From Nitrospirales bacterium (GTDB taxonomy: Bacteria; Nitrospirota; Nitrospiria; Nitrospirales; UBA8639), in the NCBI GenBank assembly GCA_963555755.3, contig OY820905.2, forward strand, positions 832,001-896,000: 64,000 bases of DNA, written 5' to 3'. This document shows, one piece after another, positions 1,757-63,933 of this stretch. Below the pieces are notes generated by a model. The model had not been told where the DNA came from. It was given only the letters and a program-made list of their open reading frames with translations, and did not search any database. Numbering within the stretch: the first letter of the stretch is position 1; every line of letters begins with the position of its first letter. Position numbers and translations under genes: made by a program.

Positions 1757-2072
1757 TGCGTTGGGCGCGGCGGAGCCGGAGTACCGAATCGGCCTTTTTG
1801 GCGAAGGCTGTTTGAGCGCAGCGAGTTCCTGAGCCATCTTATTCGGTGCGGAGGCGGAGGGACCCGGAAGAGAATGATCAAAACGTCCGTCAGCGGCGTT
1901 CTCGGCCCTTTGCCGTGCTCACGTACTACGCGTACGCTGCGCGCGCCAAAGCGCCTGCGGCCTTGCTGACGAACGTTTTGATCATTCTCTGGAGGGCCGC
2001 GCACAGGCAAAAATGGTTTGGGGTGCTTTTGCCGAAACAAAAGTGCCTCGTCATGCAGGGGCGAAACCCTGT
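1757..2072 (+). repeat. Family F intergenic repeat, interrupted by a family A element
   Basis: GCGTTGGGCGCGGCGGAG...GGAGGGCCGCGCAC...ATGGTTT...CCGAAACAAAAG; reverse partial copies at ~54726-54830 and ~53447-53490. Confidence 0.7.
1869..1990 (-). mobile_element. Family A MITE-like element (variant ends)
   Basis: Terminal IR AGAGAATGATCAAAACGT; GGA duplicated on both sides; the empty site CCCGGAGGGCC is present in the F copy near 54800. Confidence 0.8.
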
Positions 2073-6172: not shown

Positions 6173-6294
6173 TGGGCTGTTCAAAAAGGCTCGTCCAGCA
6201 AGGCTGCAGGCCCGTTGGCGCGCGGAGCGTACACGGAGTACGTGAGCACGACAACGGGCCGAGAACGCCGCTGGCGACCTTTTTCAACAGTCCA
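6173..6294 (+). mobile_element. Family A MITE-like element (5' extension from ~6098)
   Basis: GGGCTGTTCAAAAAGG...CCTTTTTCAACAGTCC termini; core shared with the other A copies. Confidence 0.85.
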
Positions 6295-9203: not shown

Positions 9204-9451
9204 CCCCTCTTTCATCTGATTCGACCAATCATACGAACCAAGAATCACGCTCCAACCCGTCCTCTCCAGAGGACGTCCTTGGGTGGGAAGGACATGTCAA
9301 TGTCCCCAGTTCCCCACTATGGACGAAACTCCTGGGTAACTGGCCTGAACTTCGTACAGGATTGGCGTTTAGTATAGTATTTGTCGTGGGAGCGGTAGTC
9401 GGAAGTAGTGTCGCGCTTCTCTTTGGTTGCAATCGTACAAAATCGGAGTAA
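9200..9451 (+). CDS. Small membrane protein
   Basis: ATGA-coupled to treY; one C-terminal hydrophobic helix. Confidence 0.55.
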   Translation: MTPLSSDSTNHTNQESRSNPSSPEDVLGWEGHVNVPSSPLWTKLLGNWPELRTGLAFSIVFVVGAVVGSSVALLFGCNRTKSE

Positions 9452-9576
9452 CTACTCAGGTGGATAGGCTGAAGGCCGAAGGCTTTTAGGAAGCCATCAT
9501 ATATGATCATACAAAACGCCGGGCATTACGAGGATTATCCTTCGGTCTTTAGCCTTCAGCCTAAATACCTGAGTAG
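9452..9576 (+). repeat. Family H palindromic element with GGCTGAA heptamers
   Basis: CTACTCAGGT...ACCTGAGTAG ends; second copy at 24156-24280. Confidence 0.8.
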
Positions 9577-9779
9577 ATACAAATCAGAAGACTAAGGATC
9601 CGTAAAGAAATACGTGGGATATTAAGACGCTTAGATTTAGGTCAGATTTGGTCGATCTGAATGAGAGGAACCGGAAGAATAGTTGTGCTATTTTGAACCT
9701 AGAAACGGCAGTTGGGCGCAAAAAAGACGTGTAAGATATTGGTGTGCATGGTGAAATACAAAAAGTCGTGGTCACCTTA

Positions 9780-9936
9780 GGGCTCGCGCAAGAATACCTT
9801 CCCCGGTTTGGGCGTCGATCCATCCTGTCTGGCGGCGTTGCTCGTCCTTTCCATACGAGGAGTATGCGCAGTCCTCGCGCCTTGCCAGACAGGTGTCTCA
9901 GCACCCAAACCGGGGAAGGTATTCTTGCGCGAACCC
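9780..9936 (+). mobile_element. Family B MITE (157 bp) inside C
   Basis: GGG(C/T)TCGCGCAAGAATA terminal IR; same length as the free copies. Confidence 0.88.
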
Positions 9937-9979
9937 TCCGTGGTGATGAGATATTTTTGTATTTTATCAGGTGCGCTAA

Positions 9980-10242
9980 GGGTCCGTCACGAAATAACCG
10001 GGACAATTGGGAGGCCCAGATTTGTGATCGGGGCAAGGCGCGACGAGGGAGCAGAGCGGGGCTCTGTGACCGAGGAGCAACGCCGCCCCGGGCCAAAGAT
10101 GGGCCTCCCCGGAAGGCCGGACGCTTTTGGGCTCCGCCGGCGTCGCTCATCGCTTCCATACTCCCGGTATGCGCGCTCTTCGCTCCTTGACTCGCTCCAA
10201 AATCGTCTCGGCCAATTGTCCCGGTTATTTCGTGACGGACCC
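9980..10242 (+). mobile_element. Family D MITE
   Basis: Perfect 31-bp terminal IR GGGTCCGTCACGAAATAACCGGGACAATTGG; flanked by TAA and TGA. Confidence 0.85.
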
Positions 10243-10245
10243 TGA

Positions 10246-10425
10246 GGACCTGCGAGAAAATAACTTGATCAATATCGCGCCAAGATTTGGGTCGGATTTG
10301 GACGGAACGATTGAGAAACACTCGAGGCATAGCACAGCTATGGTGAGGGTTTTTCGATTGAGGCCCGTTCAAAGATGGCCCGAAGATTGGATGCGAGATT
10401 GTTCAAGTTATTTTCTCGCAGGTCC
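10246..10425 (+). mobile_element. Family E MITE (180 bp)
   Basis: Terminal IR GGACCTGCGAGAAAATAACTTGA; partial copies at 53139 and 63937. Confidence 0.85.
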
Positions 10426-10585
10426 TAAGAGCTTGCGCGGACTTTTGTGATCCAACTGCGGTTTCTAGGTTGAAGGTTTCTCGATTGAAGATCGGCCAAA
10501 GATGGCCTGAAGATAAGATGTATACATGTTCCACTTATTTCTTTACGGATCCTACTAATAACCGCCGAAAAAAAAGGGGAGGACT

Positions 10586-11382: not shown

Positions 11383-11486
11383 TTCAGCCCATGGGTCGCA
11401 TTGTTAATCAACCTTTCCTAACGGGAAAGTCTAACAACTTTCTCTTATTAAAAAATACTTATCGGAACCAACCTTATATTCTTAAA

Positions 11487-11627
11487 GGGCACCTCTACAA
11501 ACCAGGCATTTTTTGTGAGGGCAAGGAAGCCGCGCGCGGAAAACCGGAGTGTATGGGCGAATACATGAGGATTTGAGCACGCGGCTAACGCCGCCATCAC
11601 GGAAAAGGACGGTTTGTAGAGGTGCCC
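11487..11627 (+). mobile_element. Family G MITE (141 bp)
   Basis: GGGCACCTCTACAAACC terminal IR, TAAA duplicated; copies at 26082-26222 and 60465-60605. Confidence 0.88.
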
Positions 11628-11836
11628 TAAAGTTTTCAGCGGGTTAACACAACCTTACTATGGGTTTCTGATCAACCCTATCCGAACATACCTCTAGTAA
11701 TAAACAATTTTTCACTTAATTTTCAACATGTTATATCAGACAAAGGCAATCAGGACAATTCAACATTTACCGTAAATTATTGAGAAGAAAGACCCCGTTG
11801 TGTGGGAGGAGAAAAAGGCAGAGGGCCCAATTTGGT

Positions 11837-19827: not shown

Positions 19828-19972
19828 GGGAATGTTCAAAAAGGTGCGCTCAGTCCTGTCCTGAGCTTGTCGAGGGAAAGGCCGCAGGCACTTTGGCGCG
19901 CGGAGCGTACTCATAGTACGTGAGCACGACAAAGAGCCGAGAACGCCGCTGACGCCCTTTTTCAACATTCCC
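19828..19972 (+). mobile_element. Family A MITE with a nested mini-hairpin (5' extension from ~19752)
   Basis: GGGAATGTTCAAAAAGG...CCTTTTTCAACATTCCC; insert TCCTGTCCTGAGCTTGTCGAGGGA at 19854-19877. Confidence 0.85.
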
Positions 19973-20521: not shown

Positions 20522-20678
20522 GGGTTCGCGCAAGAATAACTTCCCATGTTTGGGCGTCGATCCATCCCGTCTGGCAGCGTTGCTCTTCCTTTCCATACGA
20601 GGAGTATGCGCAGTCCTCGTGCCTTGCCAGACAGGTGTCTCAGCACCCAAACATGTGAAGTTATTCTTGCGCGAACCC
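20522..20678 (+). mobile_element. Family B MITE, free-standing
   Basis: Long terminal IR; TTA duplicated, one copy being the stop codon of the adjacent gene. Confidence 0.9.
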
Positions 20679-23376: not shown

Positions 23377-24159
23377 ATGTCACAACATGCCAATCCACAG
23401 ACCAATGACTCAGATCCACCTGAACCACCCGAACCAACCTATGCGGAACGGGCTCGAACCCTCATGCACATTGCACCTGTCGCCACCCTGTGCACAACGT
23501 CTCAGAAACATCCCGATTGGCCGTTTGGATCGATCGTAACCTATGGCCTCGATGATACAGGCAATCCTTCGTTTCTCATCAGCACAATGGCCATGCATAC
23601 CAAGAATATCATGATCGATGCGCGAGCCAGTGTGTTCGTCATGCAACCTGGGGGAGAACAAAATCCATTGGGCGCGGCCCGCGTCACCATTATGGGCAAA
23701 GTAACGAAAGTGTCAAAAGATCAAGACGCTGCCATCCGCGCACCATATTTAGCCCGCCACCCGAAGGCGAGCTATTGGGCCGATTTTGGGGATTTCTCGT
23801 TTTACCTAATGGACACCATCGATGTGTATTATGTCGGTGGTTTTGGATCGATGGGATGGGTCTCCGCGGAAGAGTATGCCTTGGCCCAAGTCGATCCACT
23901 GGCCGATGCGGGACCAGGACTCATTGACCACCTCAATGCCGATCACACAAACACCTTGCTGTTACTCGCCAGAGCTTCTGGCCAGCCCGATACAGAGGAG
24001 GCCACCTTGACAGCCATCGATCGGTTAGGATTTCATCTGCGGCTTAAGATCAAGGACCGCTACACTGGCAGGCGATTGACCTTTCCACAAGAGCTCAAGA
24101 GTCCCGATGATGCCCGACCCGTTTTTGCAAACATGGTGAAGCACGCGAAGGGGGACTAA
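23377..24159 (+). CDS. HugZ-like pyridoxamine 5'-phosphate oxidase-related protein with DUF2470
   Basis: PFGSIV.Y...S.MA.HT.N..D.R.S; YVGGFG; IDHLNADH, IDRLGF. Confidence 0.85.
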   Translation: MSQHANPQTNDSDPPEPPEPTYAERARTLMHIAPVATLCTTSQKHPDWPFGSIVTYGLDDTGNPSFLISTMAMHTKNIMIDARASVFVMQPGGEQNPLGAARVTIMGKVTKVSKDQDAAIRAPYLARHPKASYWADFGDFSFYLMDTIDVYYVGGFGSMGWVSAEEYALAQVDPLADAGPGLIDHLNADHTNTLLLLARASGQPDTEEATLTAIDRLGFHLRLKIKDRYTGRRLTFPQELKSPDDARPVFANMVKHAKGD

Positions 24160-24280
24160 TCAGGTGGATAGGCTGAAGGCTGAAGGGTTTAGGAGTGGCA
24201 ATCATGCGTGATCATACAAAACGTCAGGTATTATAAGTGATAGCCTTCAGTCTTTAGCCTTCAGCCTAAATACCTGAGTC
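24156..24280 (+). repeat. Family H element, second copy
   Basis: TCAGGTGGATAGGCTGAAGG...GCCTTCAGCCTAAATACCTGAGT; left end contains the upstream gene's TAA. Confidence 0.8.
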
Positions 24281-26081: not shown

Positions 26082-26222
26082 GGGTACCTCTAAAAACCAG
26101 GCATTTTATGTGAGAGCAAGGAAGCCGCGCGCGGAAAACCGGAATGTATGGGCGAATACATGAGGATGTGAGCACACGGCTGACGCCGCCATCACGGAAA
26201 AGGACGGTTTGTAGAGGTGCCC
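26082..26222 (+). mobile_element. Family G MITE
   Basis: Near-identical to 11487-11627; TCAA duplicated. Confidence 0.88.
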
Positions 26223-29494: not shown

Positions 29495-29710
29495 AGGGAA
29501 TGTTGAAAAAAGCATGCCCTGAGTCTTTCCGAAGGGTCTATCCAGCAAGGCCGCAGCCCTTTTGACGCGCGGAGCGTACTCTCAGTACGTGAGCACGGCA
29601 AAAGGGCGAGAACGCCGCTGGCGGCTTTTTTCAACATTCCCTCCCACTGATGCGAGCAGGCTTACCTGGAGCAGGTATGGGTCATGGACCCGAAACATTC
29701 AACAGACCCC
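29495..29710 (+). mobile_element. Family A MITE (29496-29641) with 3' extension
   Basis: TAA on both sides, the left one being the stop codon; nested ATGCCCTGAGTCTTTCCGAAGGGT. Confidence 0.85.
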
Positions 29711-31260: not shown

Positions 31261-31536
31261 TGGGAATGTTGAAAACGCCGCCAGCCTTCGCTAAAGCTAC
31301 GGCTGACAAGCCAGAGCGTTCCTTGCCTGCCGGAGCGGCTTCGCGCAGGCAGGTCGCCATTTTTCCGTGCTCACGTACTATGAGTACGCTCCGCGCTTCA
31401 AAATGGCTGCGGCCTTGCTGGATAGACCCTTCGGAAAGACTCAGGGCATGCTTTTTTGAACATTCCCTCCCATTGCCGATGCGTGGCTCATCTGCAGCTT
31501 TTATTTGCTATTGGAGTGAAATATTCAACAGGCCCA
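31261..31536 (-). mobile_element. Family A MITE (31262-31467) with extension and three nested mini-hairpins
   Basis: TTA duplicated; A core reversed; inserts at ~31285-31310, 31326-31353 and 31426-31449. Confidence 0.85.
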
Positions 31537-40451: not shown

Positions 40452-40648
40452 AGGGACTGTTGAATAATTGAACATTTCCAATGGATATGGCCATCTGAGA
40501 CAGTTCATGCCATCTCAAGAGCAAGGGGGGTGTTCAAAAAGGCCCGTCCAGCAAGGCCGCAGGACCTTTGGCGCGCGGAGCGTACATGGAGTACGCGAGC
40601 ACGACAAAGGGCCGAGAACGCTGCTGGCGGACTTTTTCAACGCCCCCC
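40452..40648 (+). mobile_element. Family A MITE (core from 40525) with 5' extension
   Basis: Outer GGGACTGTTGAA, inner GGGGTGTTCAAAAAGG, right end TTTTTCAACGCCCC. Confidence 0.82.
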
Positions 40649-41211: not shown

Positions 41212-41232
41212 ATGTATTTATCTCCTCTTTGA

Positions 41233-41551
41233 ACCTAGAAGCGGCAGTTGGATCACAAAAGGCCGCGCTTAGCGCACCTGGTAAAATAAAAAAAGGTCTC
41301 ATCACCACGGAGGGTTCGCGCAAGAATACCTTCCCCGGTTTGGGTGCTGAGACACCTGTCTGGCAAGGCGCGAGGACTGCGCATACTCCTCGTATGGAAA
41401 GGACGAGCAACGCCGCCAGACAGGATGGATCGACGCCCAAACAGGGGAAGGTATTCTTGCGCGAACCCTAAGGTGAACTCGACTTTTTATATTTCACCAT
41501 GCACACCAATACCTTACACGGCTTTTTTGCGCCCAACTGCCGTTTCTAGGT
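41233..41551 (-). mobile_element. Family C composite MITE containing B (41312-41468)
   Basis: ACCTAGAA...TTCTAGGT ends with TGA duplicated; lacks the D and E inserts. Confidence 0.88.
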
Positions 41552-41585
41552 TGAACGCAGCATGAGCAACAGAAAACCAGACCCC

Positions 41586-42413: not shown

Positions 42414-42482
42414 TCTCCCACCTTCCCTTCCTTCAGTCTAGTGGGTTCCCCGCAAACTGGTCAAGAAAAAGAGAAGCAGCCC

Positions 42483-44386
42483 CAGGGCTATTTCATATTA
42501 AAGTGTAACTTTATAGATAATAAGGAATAATCGATTTAGGCTGGCTTTTTCTTTTCGTTTACGGCATACTCTTTTGCATGCCAGACGAATCGCCAAGCGG
42601 ACAGCCGGACATTGATCTGAGGCAAGTCGTGGTTCGCCCAATTGTCCGAGACGAAAAGGACGCCTTCAAGACCCTTCTCGACAGACACCACTACCTCGGT
42701 CATGCCCCGCTGATTGGCCAATCGATACAATATCTCGCCTGTGTGCAGGATCGCTGGCTGGCCTTGCTGGTGTTTGCGGCGGCGGCCCTCAAATCGAGAC
42801 CGCGAGACCACTGGATCGGCTGGCCCCCCTGTTTTCAATGGCAACGACTCCATTTACTGGCCAACAACACCTGGTTTCTCATGCTGCCGGGCTGTTCGCA
42901 AAAGAACCTCGCCTCGAAAGTCCTGTCGCTCTGCGCGAAACGGATCTCGGCCGATTGGCAACTGTACCACGGCTACCCCTTGCTCCTCTTAGAGACCTTC
43001 GTCGATCCTGCCCGCTTCACCGGGACCTGCTATCGGGCCGCCGGGTGGCACGAGCTCGGTCTGACACGAGGGTTTCGCAAGTCGAACACGTGTTATGTTC
43101 AGCATGAGAGACCGAAGCGCATCCTAGTCGTGCGGCTGCATCCCCAAGCCCGAGAGATCCTTGCACGCCCGATGCTTGATCAGCCCTATCAGAAAGGAGA
43201 AGCGCCTCAGATGAGATTGAATACAAAACAGACGGACTCCCTCTTTACGTATGTGGTGCAGCTGACCGATCCCCGCCATTTGCAAGGGCAACGGCACACC
43301 CGACGCGCCCTCACGGCGATCATGTTCTGTGCCACCTTGTGCGGCGCGCGCGGCTATGAAGCGATCTCGGACTGGGCCCAGCAGTTATCGCAGCCGATGC
43401 GCAAGCGGCTAGGCTGTACTCAGCGAGGGGGGCGCTACCTCGTCCCGAGCCGCAGCACTCTTTACCGCTTTATCACGGCCGTCGACCCCTGTGAAGTCGA
43501 TACCCTGCTCGGCCGGTGGCTGGACACCTTCGGCGGGGAGGATCAGGGCATTGCCATTGATGGGAAGACCATGCGGGGGACGTCGAAGGTCCCAAGCGAA
43601 CAGACCCACGTCCTCAGCGCCGTCACCCATCAAGCCGGGCGCCACCTCACCCAAAAAAAGTTCACTCCAAGACCAATGAGATCCCCTGCGTGCGGCCCCT
43701 GTTAGATGCGCTCGAGATCGCAGGGAAGGTGATCACGGCGGATGCGCTCCTCACCCAGAAAGAGATTGCCGAGTACCTGGTGCACGAACGCGGCGCCGAC
43801 TTCGTCTTCACCGTCAAGGGAAACCAGCCCACCTTGAAGCACGACATTGAGGCCTTAGCGTTGCGAGCACGCCGGTGCGATTATGCCACCACCGAGAAAG
43901 GCCATGGGCAGATCACGACCCGCAGGATCTGGTGCGATGACTCCCTGAATGCCTATGTCAACTTTCCTCATGTCCAGCAAGTCTTCTGCATTGAGAGGGA
44001 AGTGACGCATCTCAAGCAGGGCCTCACGACCGTCGAAGCGGTCTGCGGTGTCACGAGTCAGTCCAAAGACAAGGCGGGGCCGAAGACCATCCTCTCGCAA
44101 AACCGAAAGCATTGGAGTGTGGAGAATAAGCAGCATTATGTGTTGGACGTCACCTTTGATGAAGACAGGAGTCAGATACGAAGTCTCAATGGCCCAATGG
44201 TCATGACCTGTCTGAGACGCTATGCCATCAGTCTCTTACGCCTGAAAGGCTACACCAATATCGCGCAGGCGTGTAGACTGCTCTGGGGCAAGCCCCATTT
44301 AGCCATCCGCATGGCCCTGCCCTGAAAAAGAGCGCACAAAAAACCTCATGGAATCCCTTGCTTATAAAAAGAATGAAATGGCCCTG
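42483..44386 (+). mobile_element. ISAs1-family insertion sequence (1904 bp)
   Basis: IR CAGGGCTATTTCAT / ATGAAATGGCCCTG; 10-bp target duplication GAAGCAGCCC. Confidence 0.92.
42578..44325 (+). CDS. DUF4338 (DruA-like) domain fused to an ISAs1 transposase, completed by a -1 frameshift
   Basis: HHYLG, ANN.WFL.LP...NLASKVLS, LLETFVD, GTCYRAAGW..LG.TRG; then DPR, AIDGKT.RG, A_AAA_AAG at 43654-43660 giving KTNEIP, TADAL, VKGNQ, HWSVEN, DVTFDED. Confidence 0.85.
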
Positions 44387-44400
44387 GAAGCAGCCCCTAA

Positions 44401-44597
44401 TGGGATTGATAAAAAATTTAAAATTTTCATAATGCCGTCACATGTAACTCATCTCATGAACATTCAAGAGCAACAGGGGATGTTCAAAAAGGTGCGCTCA
44501 GCAAGGCCGCAGGCCCTTTGACGCGCGGAGCGTACTCATAGTACGTGAGCACGACAAAGGGCCGAGAACGCCGCTGACGCCCTTTTTCAACATCCCC
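44401..44597 (+). mobile_element. Family A MITE (core 44476-44597) with 5' extension
   Basis: TAA duplicated; core identical to 45790-45911. Confidence 0.88.
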
Positions 44598-45670
44598 TAA
44601 TGGACTTTCAACTCCGTCCAGGCACGATCATAGTATCGAGTGGCTTCTCCGGCATCGACCATCCATTCCATACGAGCAATGACTTCTGGTGGAGGATACA
44701 CCGCGGAGTTATTTCGCACGGAAGGAGACACCAGATCTTTCACCAAACGATTCGCTGAGGCAAACAAAAGTCGCTCCGACGTAGTTTGAGCCACCTGCGT
44801 ATCAATAAGATAGTTAATAAATTCGAACGCCATCGACTTCCGCGGTGATGTGGCGAGCACGGTCAGACAATCCGTCCAAATAGTTCCACCCTCTTGAGGA
44901 ACGACATAGCGAATGGAAGGACGCTCTCGCATCGCTCGAGCAATTGGCCCACCCCAGGCATGGGCCAACACCACATCGCCGGTGACCAATAAATGATCGA
45001 ACGCTTCACTCGTATAGATCAAGACCAAGGGCTTCTGTGCAATCAGCTTTTGTTTGGCCTGCTCGATGAGCCGAGGGTCTTGACTATTCAATGAATGCCC
45101 CAGCGATCTCAGGGCCATCCCAAACACTTCCCGCTGATCATTGAGCATGCTAATCCGCCCCGAATACCGTGCATCCCATAAAATATTCCAACTCGTTGGC
45201 GGCTCCTGGATCGTCGCCGAATCGTAGCCTATGCCTACGGTACCCCACAGATACGGCACTGAATATTCCTGCGCAGGATCAAACGGGAGGTTTTTCAGAA
45301 AGGGCTCAATAAATTGCTCATTGGGAATGCGACGGTGGTCTACCTTCGCCAAGAAACCCAGCTGTGCCATGATGGACACCATAAAATCCGATGGCACCAC
45401 CACATCATAACCCGTCGCCCCGCTCTGCACTTTGGCCAACAGTTCTTCATTGCTACTAAACGTATCAACCACAACCCTGATGCCGGTTTGATCTTCAAAC
45501 CCATCAAGCAATTCTTGGTCCACATAATCCGACCAGGTGAAGTAATACAATTCCTTGCCGGCAGTATCCTCAGGCTGTGCACTGTTGGAGGATTCTCCAG
45601 TGTTCTGCCCACACCCAGCCAGTACCCCGACAAGGATCAGAAGACTGACGGCCACCCTACACAACGGCAT
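44597..45670 (-). CDS. potD: Spermidine/putrescine ABC transporter substrate-binding lipoprotein
   Basis: Lipobox LAGC; WSDY, SNEE, YDVVVPSD, PYLWGT.GI, P.EGG.IW.D. Confidence 0.88.
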   Translation of the reverse strand: MPLCRVAVSLLILVGVLAGCGQNTGESSNSAQPEDTAGKELYYFTWSDYVDQELLDGFEDQTGIRVVVDTFSSNEELLAKVQSGATGYDVVVPSDFMVSIMAQLGFLAKVDHRRIPNEQFIEPFLKNLPFDPAQEYSVPYLWGTVGIGYDSATIQEPPTSWNILWDARYSGRISMLNDQREVFGMALRSLGHSLNSQDPRLIEQAKQKLIAQKPLVLIYTSEAFDHLLVTGDVVLAHAWGGPIARAMRERPSIRYVVPQEGGTIWTDCLTVLATSPRKSMAFEFINYLIDTQVAQTTSERLLFASANRLVKDLVSPSVRNNSAVYPPPEVIARMEWMVDAGEATRYYDRAWTELKVH

Positions 45671-45711: not shown

Positions 45712-45911
45712 TGGAACCATTGAATAATTGAAAATTTTTCATCATGCCGTTCACATGTGACTCATCTTATAAAACATCCAAGAGCAACAGGGGATGTTCA
45801 AAAAGGTGCGCTCAGCAAGGCCGCAGGCCCTTTGACGCGCGGAGCGTACTCATAGTACGTGAGCACGACAAAGGGCCGAGAACGCCGCTGACGCCCTTTT
45901 TCAACATCCCC
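45712..45911 (+). mobile_element. Family A MITE (core 45790-45911) with 5' extension, between potC and potD
   Basis: Core identical to the 44476 copy. Confidence 0.88.
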
Positions 45912-53111: not shown

Positions 53112-53138
53112 TTTCCTCCCCACCGCCCTTCACCCTAA

Positions 53139-53446
53139 GGACCTAAGAGAAAATAACTTGAACAATATCGCGCCAAGATTTGGGGCAGATTTGGACGGAA
53201 CGATTGAGAAAAACCCGAGGCATAGCACAGCTATGTTGAGGGTTTTTCGATTGAGGCCCGTTCAACCTAGAAACGGCAGTTGGGCGAAAAAAGCCGTGTA
53301 AGATATTGGTGTGCATGGTGCAATACAAAAAGTCGTGGTCGCCTTAGGGTTCGCGCAAGAATAACTTCCCCTGTTTGGGCATCGATCCATCCCGTCTGGC
53401 AGCGTTGCTCGTCCTTTCCATACCGAGGAGTATGCGCAGCCCTCGC
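53139..53446 (+). mobile_element. Nested truncated E (53139-53264) > C (from 53265) > B (from 53347)
   Basis: Left ends of all three present; C entered E at TCA; right ends missing. Confidence 0.8.
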
Positions 53447-53470
53447 CGGGAGGTCGATTCGGTACGGAGG

Positions 53471-53783
53471 CTCCGCCGCGCCCAACGCGAAGACCCACGA
53501 TCGAGGCAGAAAATGAAAGAGCAACCTTACATAACAATTGATTGTCATTTCGAGCGAAACGAGAAATCTCCCCCCAATGTCGAACGAGAGATTTCTCCCA
53601 AGGGTCGAAATGACAAAGGAGGGGTGGAAGTGCCAAGCAGTTTGCGAAATGACAGGAGGGAAAGCCTGACTTCCCGATTAAGGATGTCTGGAATGACGGT
53701 AAGGAAAATTGCTAGGTGGAATTGGGGGCAGGTATGAGTATTGAGTTTTCAACGAACTCTTTAAAATGTGGCTTAATAAAGGT
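53471..53783 (+). repeat. 313-bp direct repeat, copy 1
   Basis: Near-identical to 54810-55122. Confidence 0.92.
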
Positions 53784-60464: not shown

Positions 60465-60605
60465 GGGCACCTCTAAAAACCGTCCTTTTCCGTGATGGCG
60501 GCGTCAGCCGCGTGCTCACATCCTCATGTATTCGCCCATACACTCCGGTTTTCCGCGCGCGGCTTCCTTGCCCTCACAAAAAATGCCGGGTTTTTAGAGG
60601 TGCCC
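60465..60605 (-). mobile_element. Family G MITE
   Basis: Reverse complement of the 11487 copy. Confidence 0.88.
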
Positions 60606-63776: not shown

Positions 63777-63933
63777 GGGTTCGCGCAAGAATAACTCCCC
63801 ATGTTTGGGCGTCGATCCATCCCGTCTGGCGGCGTTGCTCGTCCTTTCCATACGAGGAGTATGCGCAGTCCTCGCGCCTTGCCAGACAGGTGTCTCAGCA
63901 CCCAAACATGGGGAGTTATTCTTGCGCGAACCC
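63777..63933 (+). mobile_element. Family B MITE
   Basis: 157 bp, long terminal IR, flanked by TAA/TTA. Confidence 0.9.

Follow-up and report, generated by a model that had tools for sequence, protein, structure and literature searches.

A conserved hairpin core in miniature transposons with different ends, ERIC and Rickettsia palindromic elements

Four families of short repeats (A, B, D and G) in the window, i.e., the whole 64,000-nt stretch of DNA analyzed here, have an imperfect hairpin in common, in the following termed the core, which is a conserved module of many miniature transposons with different ends. MITEs of bacteria are conventionally grouped according to their ends and treated as genus-specific (PMC11602168), their interior being seen as decayed IS sequence. 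In case of the core, the interior and not the ends is the part conserved, with about ten phyla represented, and it links ERIC and RPE-1/RPE-5, two classic repeats that had been described independently of each other. The core is a real cross-phylum structural module within an otherwise known kind of element. New are the joint blind test (ERIC, RPE-1, RPE-5), the spacing in two classes, the test for selection at the level of copying and the boundaries of family A.

Miniature elements of the window and their ends

The host genome of the window (4.6 Mb, 99 % complete) is dense in short repeats. Copies reaching at least 85 % of the window query number 160 for family A, 163 for B, 123 for G, 40 for D, 93 for H (label of a 190-bp family) and 39–44 for E. 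Families A, B, D and G display traits of MITEs: they are short, non-coding and present in many dispersed copies with terminal inverted repeats (Table 1). Named records with matches to the A-type core belong to Nitrospira or Nitrospirales.

Table 1 Core-bearing elements, cores and motifs in the window
Feature	Position	Strand
Family A mobile unit (A-long type, 195 bp): left end, 74-nt unique part, hairpin	44402..44596	+
5-bp target duplication CTAAT, left copy	44397..44401	+
5-bp target duplication CTAAT, right copy	44597..44601	+
122-nt rod hairpin; 5' arm is the right end copied inverted	44476..44597	+
Outer motif, 5' half, GCAAGG	44501..44506	+
Inner motif: GGAG, 5-bp stem, variable loop, TGA	44527..44549	+
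Outer motif, 3' half, AACGCCGC	44567..44574	+
Family A core, long class	45815..45888	+
Family A core	6198..6271	+
Family A core; short hairpin inserted just upstream	19873..19952	+
Family A core	29545..29618	+
Family A core; insertion breaks 3' side	31346..31421	-
Family A core	40551..40624	+
A-type core within another repeat, hairpin arms different	1893..1966	-
Family G element, IS5-type ends, 4-bp duplication; core 11521-11594	11486..11630	+
Family G core	26113..26192	+
Family G core	60495..60574	-
Family B element, 3-bp TWA duplication; short-class core 41363-41416	41312..41470	+
Family B core	9832..9885	-
Family B core	20574..20627	-
Family B core	63829..63882	-
Family D element: two short-class cores in opposite orientation	9980..10240	+
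First D core (D1), three opposed GA/GA steps	10033..10086	+
Second D core, B-type centre (CATAC/GTATG)	10134..10193	-
Family H (190 bp) centre; weak match only, E 0.07	53208..53250	+

The first-pass annotation had regarded the 122-nt hairpin as the element. However, this hairpin forms the 3' part of a longer mobile unit, since the CTAAT duplication flanks 44402-44596. Many A copies start about 70 nt upstream of the hairpin with a second end, which represents the true left end of the family, and an exact 5-bp duplication is present in 58 of 116 A-long units versus 3 of 104 bare 122-nt hairpins. The hairpin stretch has a folding z of about −9.5 to −9.9 on both strands, and the two strands of this A copy fold equally well (−71 and −74 kcal/mol). 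A role of the hairpin in bringing both ends together fails for family A, where it lies off-centre between the true ends. All hairpins quoted in the annotation are present in the window (6 exact copies of the A type, 2 of G, 1 of D; CATAC/GTATG at 6 places), but the second D core, supposed to be a copy of the first, proved to be of B type.

Family G carries a 4-bp target duplication in 71 of 88 cases, and family B a 3-bp duplication in 49 of 73, with 31 expected from the common target. B and H have the 3-bp duplication and the target C-TWA-G in common; the target of E is CTAG, and the D flanks read C-TNA-G, albeit with too few independent sites. The 16-nt end of G recurs in an IS5 element from another record, which is flanked by a 4-bp duplication, and E shares its end with an IS1182 element of the host genome. 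For A, B and D no partner IS was found; the viral-contig scans for such a partner provided 7 loci for A (none of the 7 being an IS) and 1 candidate locus for B (L578). Since the duplications (5, 4 and 3 bp) and the matches to IS ends differ by family, several DDE enzymes are likely to move these families, in agreement with the different transposases originally proposed. Judged by sequence, the ends can also be called unrelated, although IS5 and IS1182 are kin.

Several candidate origins and movers were rejected. Inspection by eye of the terminal regions of the host genome's IS1182 and IS5 elements revealed no core, arguing against its derivation from an IS interior, and the IS5 element with G ends contains no core according to covariance model R2 (see below). 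Relation to REP/REPIN or IS200/IS605-type elements is contradicted by the presence of target duplications, by the lack of a Y1/RAYT enzyme among 47 neighbouring proteins and by the lack of a replichore bias. An IS110-family element (NF033542), a bridge-RNA element with the MITE as landing site, occurs at 13 places in the genome (e.g., L577:134-1493), and all 13 BLAST matches have at least one junction at the same position of a 24-nt insert in the A arm; this site is outside the core, and IS110 was dismissed as its mover or targeter.

The repeats of the window are frequently nested. In the clusters at 9575-10553, 41220-41562 and 53125-53699, B, D, H and other repeats are inserted into each other at common C-TNA-G targets, short REP-like hairpins recur as inserts directly beside the outer motif in A copies (among them those at 19850-19880 and 31290-31360), and family A is found inside E about 28 times genome-wide. 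Further multicopy repeats (9445-9580, 24154-24280, 960-1051; about 25–30 copies each) are devoid of the core. The IS at 42479-44389 (about 43 copies) has two overlapping frames, one combining a DruA-like domain with DDE_Tnp_1_assoc, the other encoding a DDE domain; this IS is deeply covered by contigs of one RNA run.

Anatomy and spacing of the core

The core comprises an outer motif (GCAAGG..RACGCMGC), a paired stem of free sequence and an inner motif (GGAG-YRTA..TAYR-TGA). On one strand, GC-AAG-GC is located opposite RAC-GC-M-GC, followed by the middle stem and by a centre in which GA faces GA, next to a G-T pair, and a 5-bp stem containing a TA step is capped by a loop that varies; the opposed GA/GA and the G-T pair are also those of the inner motif at 44527..44549. 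The pattern GCAAGG N14-26 GAGYNTA N5-10 TANRTGA occurs 7 times in the window (0.00 expected from 100 shuffles), and the strict pattern GCAAGG(30-90)AACGCYGC 368 times genome-wide (2 in one shuffle).

Covariation across families, as predicted by the annotation, was found in both classes of the core distinguished below. In the long class (57 sequences), 18 of 23 pairs show two-sided changes, and 80 % of cells are paired as compared to 56 % when shuffled and at most 54 % when slid; this alignment is fitted to the model, and the two outer helices are only 39–49 % paired in its register. In the short class, 12 of 17 pairs changed on both sides, with 87 % versus 71 % (shuffled) of pairing and 84–88 % in the outer helices, based on a plain MAFFT alignment of 16 hand-picked cores. 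Moreover, in a set of 185 cores reduced to 66 by dereplication (mean identity 39 %), arms pair at −17.0 kcal/mol with their own partner and at −7.6 kcal/mol when swapped. The perfect stems turn over, and it is the mismatches, i.e., GA/GA, G-T and AAG/RAC, that are invariant. The loops vary freely without enrichment of tetraloops.

The distance between outer and inner motif was determined from 129 distinct matches in metagenome contigs, allowing spacers of 5–35 nt. Stem and 3' motif are present in 98 of them, 8 with spacers of 9–11 nt, 90 with 18–21 nt and none elsewhere. The mean spacers are 9.9/10.9 nt in the short and 19.5/20.0 nt in the long class, a difference of about 9.5 nt per arm. Families B and D belong to the short class, as do further families met incidentally, one of them with at least 148 copies. 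By the usual values of helical pitch, a spacing of about 10 or about 20 nt fits one versus two helical turns; it does not discriminate DNA from RNA. A spirochaete genome with at least 148 core copies contains head-to-tail arrays with periods of 170 and 126 bp (G024:C1:450780-452731, 2568892-2569477).

The strand carrying the GA steps (GA strand) is predicted to be the better folder in 59 of 63 cores when modelled as DNA and in 56 of 63 when modelled as RNA, there with a mean advantage of 6.9 kcal/mol; this does not hold for the copy at 44476..44597. Isolated mismatches of the middle stem (AG 25, AA 21, GT 17, AC 15, GG 14) display no G-U excess, while the outer arms show an excess of both G-T and A-G, isolated G-T amounting to 54 versus 12 A-C. 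Kink-turns have a 3-nt bulge in their consensus; the bulge beside the GA/GA step of the core is 0 or 1 nt, and an assignment as kink-turn was rejected.

Occurrence in ERIC, Rickettsia palindromic elements and other phyla

Three covariance models with rough E-values were employed: R1 trained solely on nine copies of families A and G in the window, R2 from 57 cross-phylum cores (including one ERIC-like and two Rickettsiales loci, for which it is not blind) and the short-class model R3. The expectation that a model trained on one family finds the others was borne out in part. R1 missed B and the second D core and reached D1 only at E 1.2, but the broader models succeeded, with R2 picking up D1 (E 9e-4) and three B copies (E 0.026), and R3 the A/G copies (E 4e-4 to 0.15); to H, R3 gave only weak matches (E 0.07 and 2.6). 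For E, E' and J the looser ATAG..TAT hairpins described in the annotation do exist, but membership of these families finds no support, since none of R1, R2 and R3 matches them. Rfam provided no match in the window at gathering score and nothing meaningful up to E 10 at 44476..44597.

Searching the whole chromosome of E. coli K-12 with R1 yielded 10 matches at E≤1, all of them ERIC (4 aligning to ERIC by BLAST, 1 ERIC-like by eye) or members of a second repeat family (5). This blind test agrees with the core common to ERIC that had been suggested for the window. With R2, 20 matches were obtained, i.e., 13 ERIC (BLAST), 6 of the second family and 1 ambiguous. The spacer between aceF and lpd, which we take to carry an ERIC, has the core layout of the window families, confirming the layout that the annotation had given for ERIC. 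The reverse complement of the ERIC consensus (PMC2759123, Table 1a) agrees by eye with this copy. ERIC/IRU/RU-1 of enterobacteria and vibrios thus possess outer and inner motifs like the window families, at the long spacing. Nevertheless, the window families are not ERIC: they have the core in common but differ in ends and lengths and have 3–5-bp duplications, whereas ERIC is 127 bp long with TA at its termini (PMC2229807). According to the latter review, no DNA motif besides the terminal repeats was found in ERIC.

The second E. coli K-12 family (6 copies of about 115–125 bp; L122, L123, L125, L127, L129, L490) is close to family G in its inner 50 nt, with two-sided change in the inner stem, but lacks the GCAAGG/AACGC outer motif. 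It is possibly the RSA repeat; the literature consulted contains no name for it.

The genome of a Rickettsia endosymbiont harbours 20 matches to R1 at E≤0.1 and 35 to R2. From 25 loci fetched, nine frames were scanned, three of which scored above the NCBIfam cut-off for RPE1, three for RPE5 and three without match; four of those six RPE frames were found blindly by R1 (E 2e-4 to 7e-3). RPE-5 (TIGR03776) retains outer and inner motifs, RPE-1 (TIGR01045) only the inner one. In contrast to the window families, RPEs often reside in frame in genes, and their ends differ by eye. Ogata reportedly likened RPEs to enterobacterial repeats in size and shape in 2000, and part of the link may be in print. 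Reviews treat RPE and ERIC as separate families, and the literature searched, with the primary ERIC, RSA and RPE papers outside the search, contains no account of a core joining ERIC, RPE and other MITEs.

The proposed occurrence of the core far outside Enterobacteriaceae is substantiated by a pattern scan of GTDB contigs, from which the number of matching stretches was estimated at about 10,000; the titles of the 119 loci listed span about ten phyla. Among these 119 loci listed, the inner stem is fully paired in 106, and the 3' motif, absent from the search pattern, is present in 89. At E≤1e-4, R2 detects the core in at least 5 of 50 random Bacillota and at least 16 of 50 random Pseudomonadota genomes (seeds excluded), these being lower bounds with 91 candidates scored per genome. 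The first viral-contig scan, with the inner stem paired in 29 of 120 matches, mostly reflects chance.

Level of selection and possible role of the core

Selection on the core, as postulated in the annotation, was analyzed for families A, B, D and G by comparing private mutations (in one copy) with shared variants (in three or more copies), significance being assessed by permutation within family and base. Private mutations occur in the core at background rate (58 observed, 58.3 expected), yet shared variants avoid it (22 observed, 54.4 expected, p<1e-4), so that selection is likely to act during copying. Damage to its core thus seems to end the copying of an element without leading to its removal. 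Against such a copying-level reading, the signal comes mainly from family A: without A the contrast keeps its direction but loses significance (Fisher p=0.19), and counting changes on trees gives the same result in A (p=5e-4) and in B (p=0.013), but not in G. The 36 copies of an ERIC variant hold too few changes for this scoring. Two orthologous single-copy pairs keep the core at 49–56 % fourfold-site difference, pointing to selection at the level of the host for at least some residents; some of these copies may be host-adopted, or later arrivals. One pair occupies the sdhD-sdhA spacer, the other adjoins a ThiS-family gene; the copies run antisense to the genes, at near-saturated synonymous divergence (L511/L514, L510/L516).

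It is plausible, if not quite probable, that the core works as folded single-stranded DNA acting during copying by borrowed DDE transposases. The strand would fold during transient unpairing of the DNA, both motifs could be read on one helix face by a host protein, or a pair of proteins, of wide conservation, and the folded core might help a very short element to assemble or resolve the transposition complex and thereby raise its rate of copying by the borrowed enzymes. DNA is preferred to RNA because orientations are mixed, the middle stem has no G-U excess and the loops are free. Beside gene 3' ends (crude gene calls), the orientation is 13:55 for A, 27:15 for G and 35:29 for B, with H flat; A and G thus face neighbouring genes in opposite ways. 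Against the reading as single-stranded DNA, no bias for the lagging-strand template or replichore was found in six families of the host genome, nor for the lagging strand at 94 sites in a spirochaete genome (p=0.88), and both strands of the A copy at 44476..44597 fold equally well.

Two known systems are comparable by description. Correia/NEMIS elements are MITEs with a functional internal module, an IHF site (PMC10969869, as cited), and the role of the core may resemble that thought for this site; in contrast to what is proposed for the core, the latter is duplex DNA read by IHF and limited to one element. The interpretation as folded single-stranded DNA also recalls attC sites of integrons. 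These adopt a purine-skewed single-strand fold with fixed unpaired features, but are set apart from the core by their GTT/AAC recombination boxes and cognate integrase.

Also against the proposed role, the outer motif is not needed for spread: an ERIC variant that has been copied often (36 copies) carries it in altered form, and both RPE-1 and the second family of E. coli lack it. Families H and E spread without a clear core.

Alternatively, the core could be an RNA structure by which a transcript bears an insertion or even profits from it (via processing, stability or escape from RNase III), so that core-bearing elements persist and multiply; we consider this somewhat unlikely. An effect of ERIC RNA on mRNA stability via RNase E, dependent on orientation, was described for Yersinia (PMC2229807, as cited), RPEs are tolerated in tmRNA and M1 RNA, and sense-strand copies exist in rRNA spacers and a 16S leader. 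The better folding of the GA strand as RNA, the G-T bias of the outer arms and the conservation of old orthologous copies would likewise agree with it. However, orientation to genes differs between families, many low-copy core matches inside operons have the GA strand antisense, resident copies mutate in the core at background rate, and neither tetraloops nor middle-stem G-U pairs are enriched. The sense-strand copies, which speak for RNA, comprise 6 of 7 copies in one Bacillus, located on the transcribed strand in five 16S-23S spacers and a tRNA cluster (L496-L501, G022), and a core element found twice in a 16S leader of a Coriobacteriales genome (L216). In RNA contigs, the summed depth over the repeats tracks copy number and is silent on strand, ends and level.

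Unlikely is also that the hairpin represents a second-level mobile cassette or recombination substrate, with an enzyme moving the core among IS-ended shells. The hairpin is indeed found at the 3' end of A-long, inside E (the roughly 28 A copies mentioned above), in a re-armed repeat and twice in D, outer and inner motifs combine differently, and ISs with matching ends lack it. Yet the bare 122-nt hairpin rarely duplicated its target as compared to the long unit, and no dedicated enzyme was detected beside low-copy core matches, none of the 47 proteins from 26 loci being a transposase, nuclease or recombinase. Finally, inverted repeats correct each other, which alone yields covariation, and copies within one genome can homogenise, but an old common ancestor kept by such palindrome mechanics (template switching, gene conversion) without function is very improbable, since correction should erase the mismatches, yet GA/GA, G-T and AAG/RAC are invariant, and since the two-class spacing and the deficit of shared variants need selection.

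Extending the reading as folded single-stranded DNA, one may tentatively speculate on a pan-bacterial class of mobile DNA that is defined by its centre, i.e., a hairpin with two helically phased motifs, a host factor and parasitised transposases of IS5, IS1182 and IS630 type. If so, ERIC and Rickettsia palindromic elements would be members of this class, and the reason for their conservation would be directly testable. The core model offers a way to detect such elements regardless of their ends, and given the fixed spacing of 10/20 nt together with the copying-level signal, the purpose of ERIC is now testable with few mutants.
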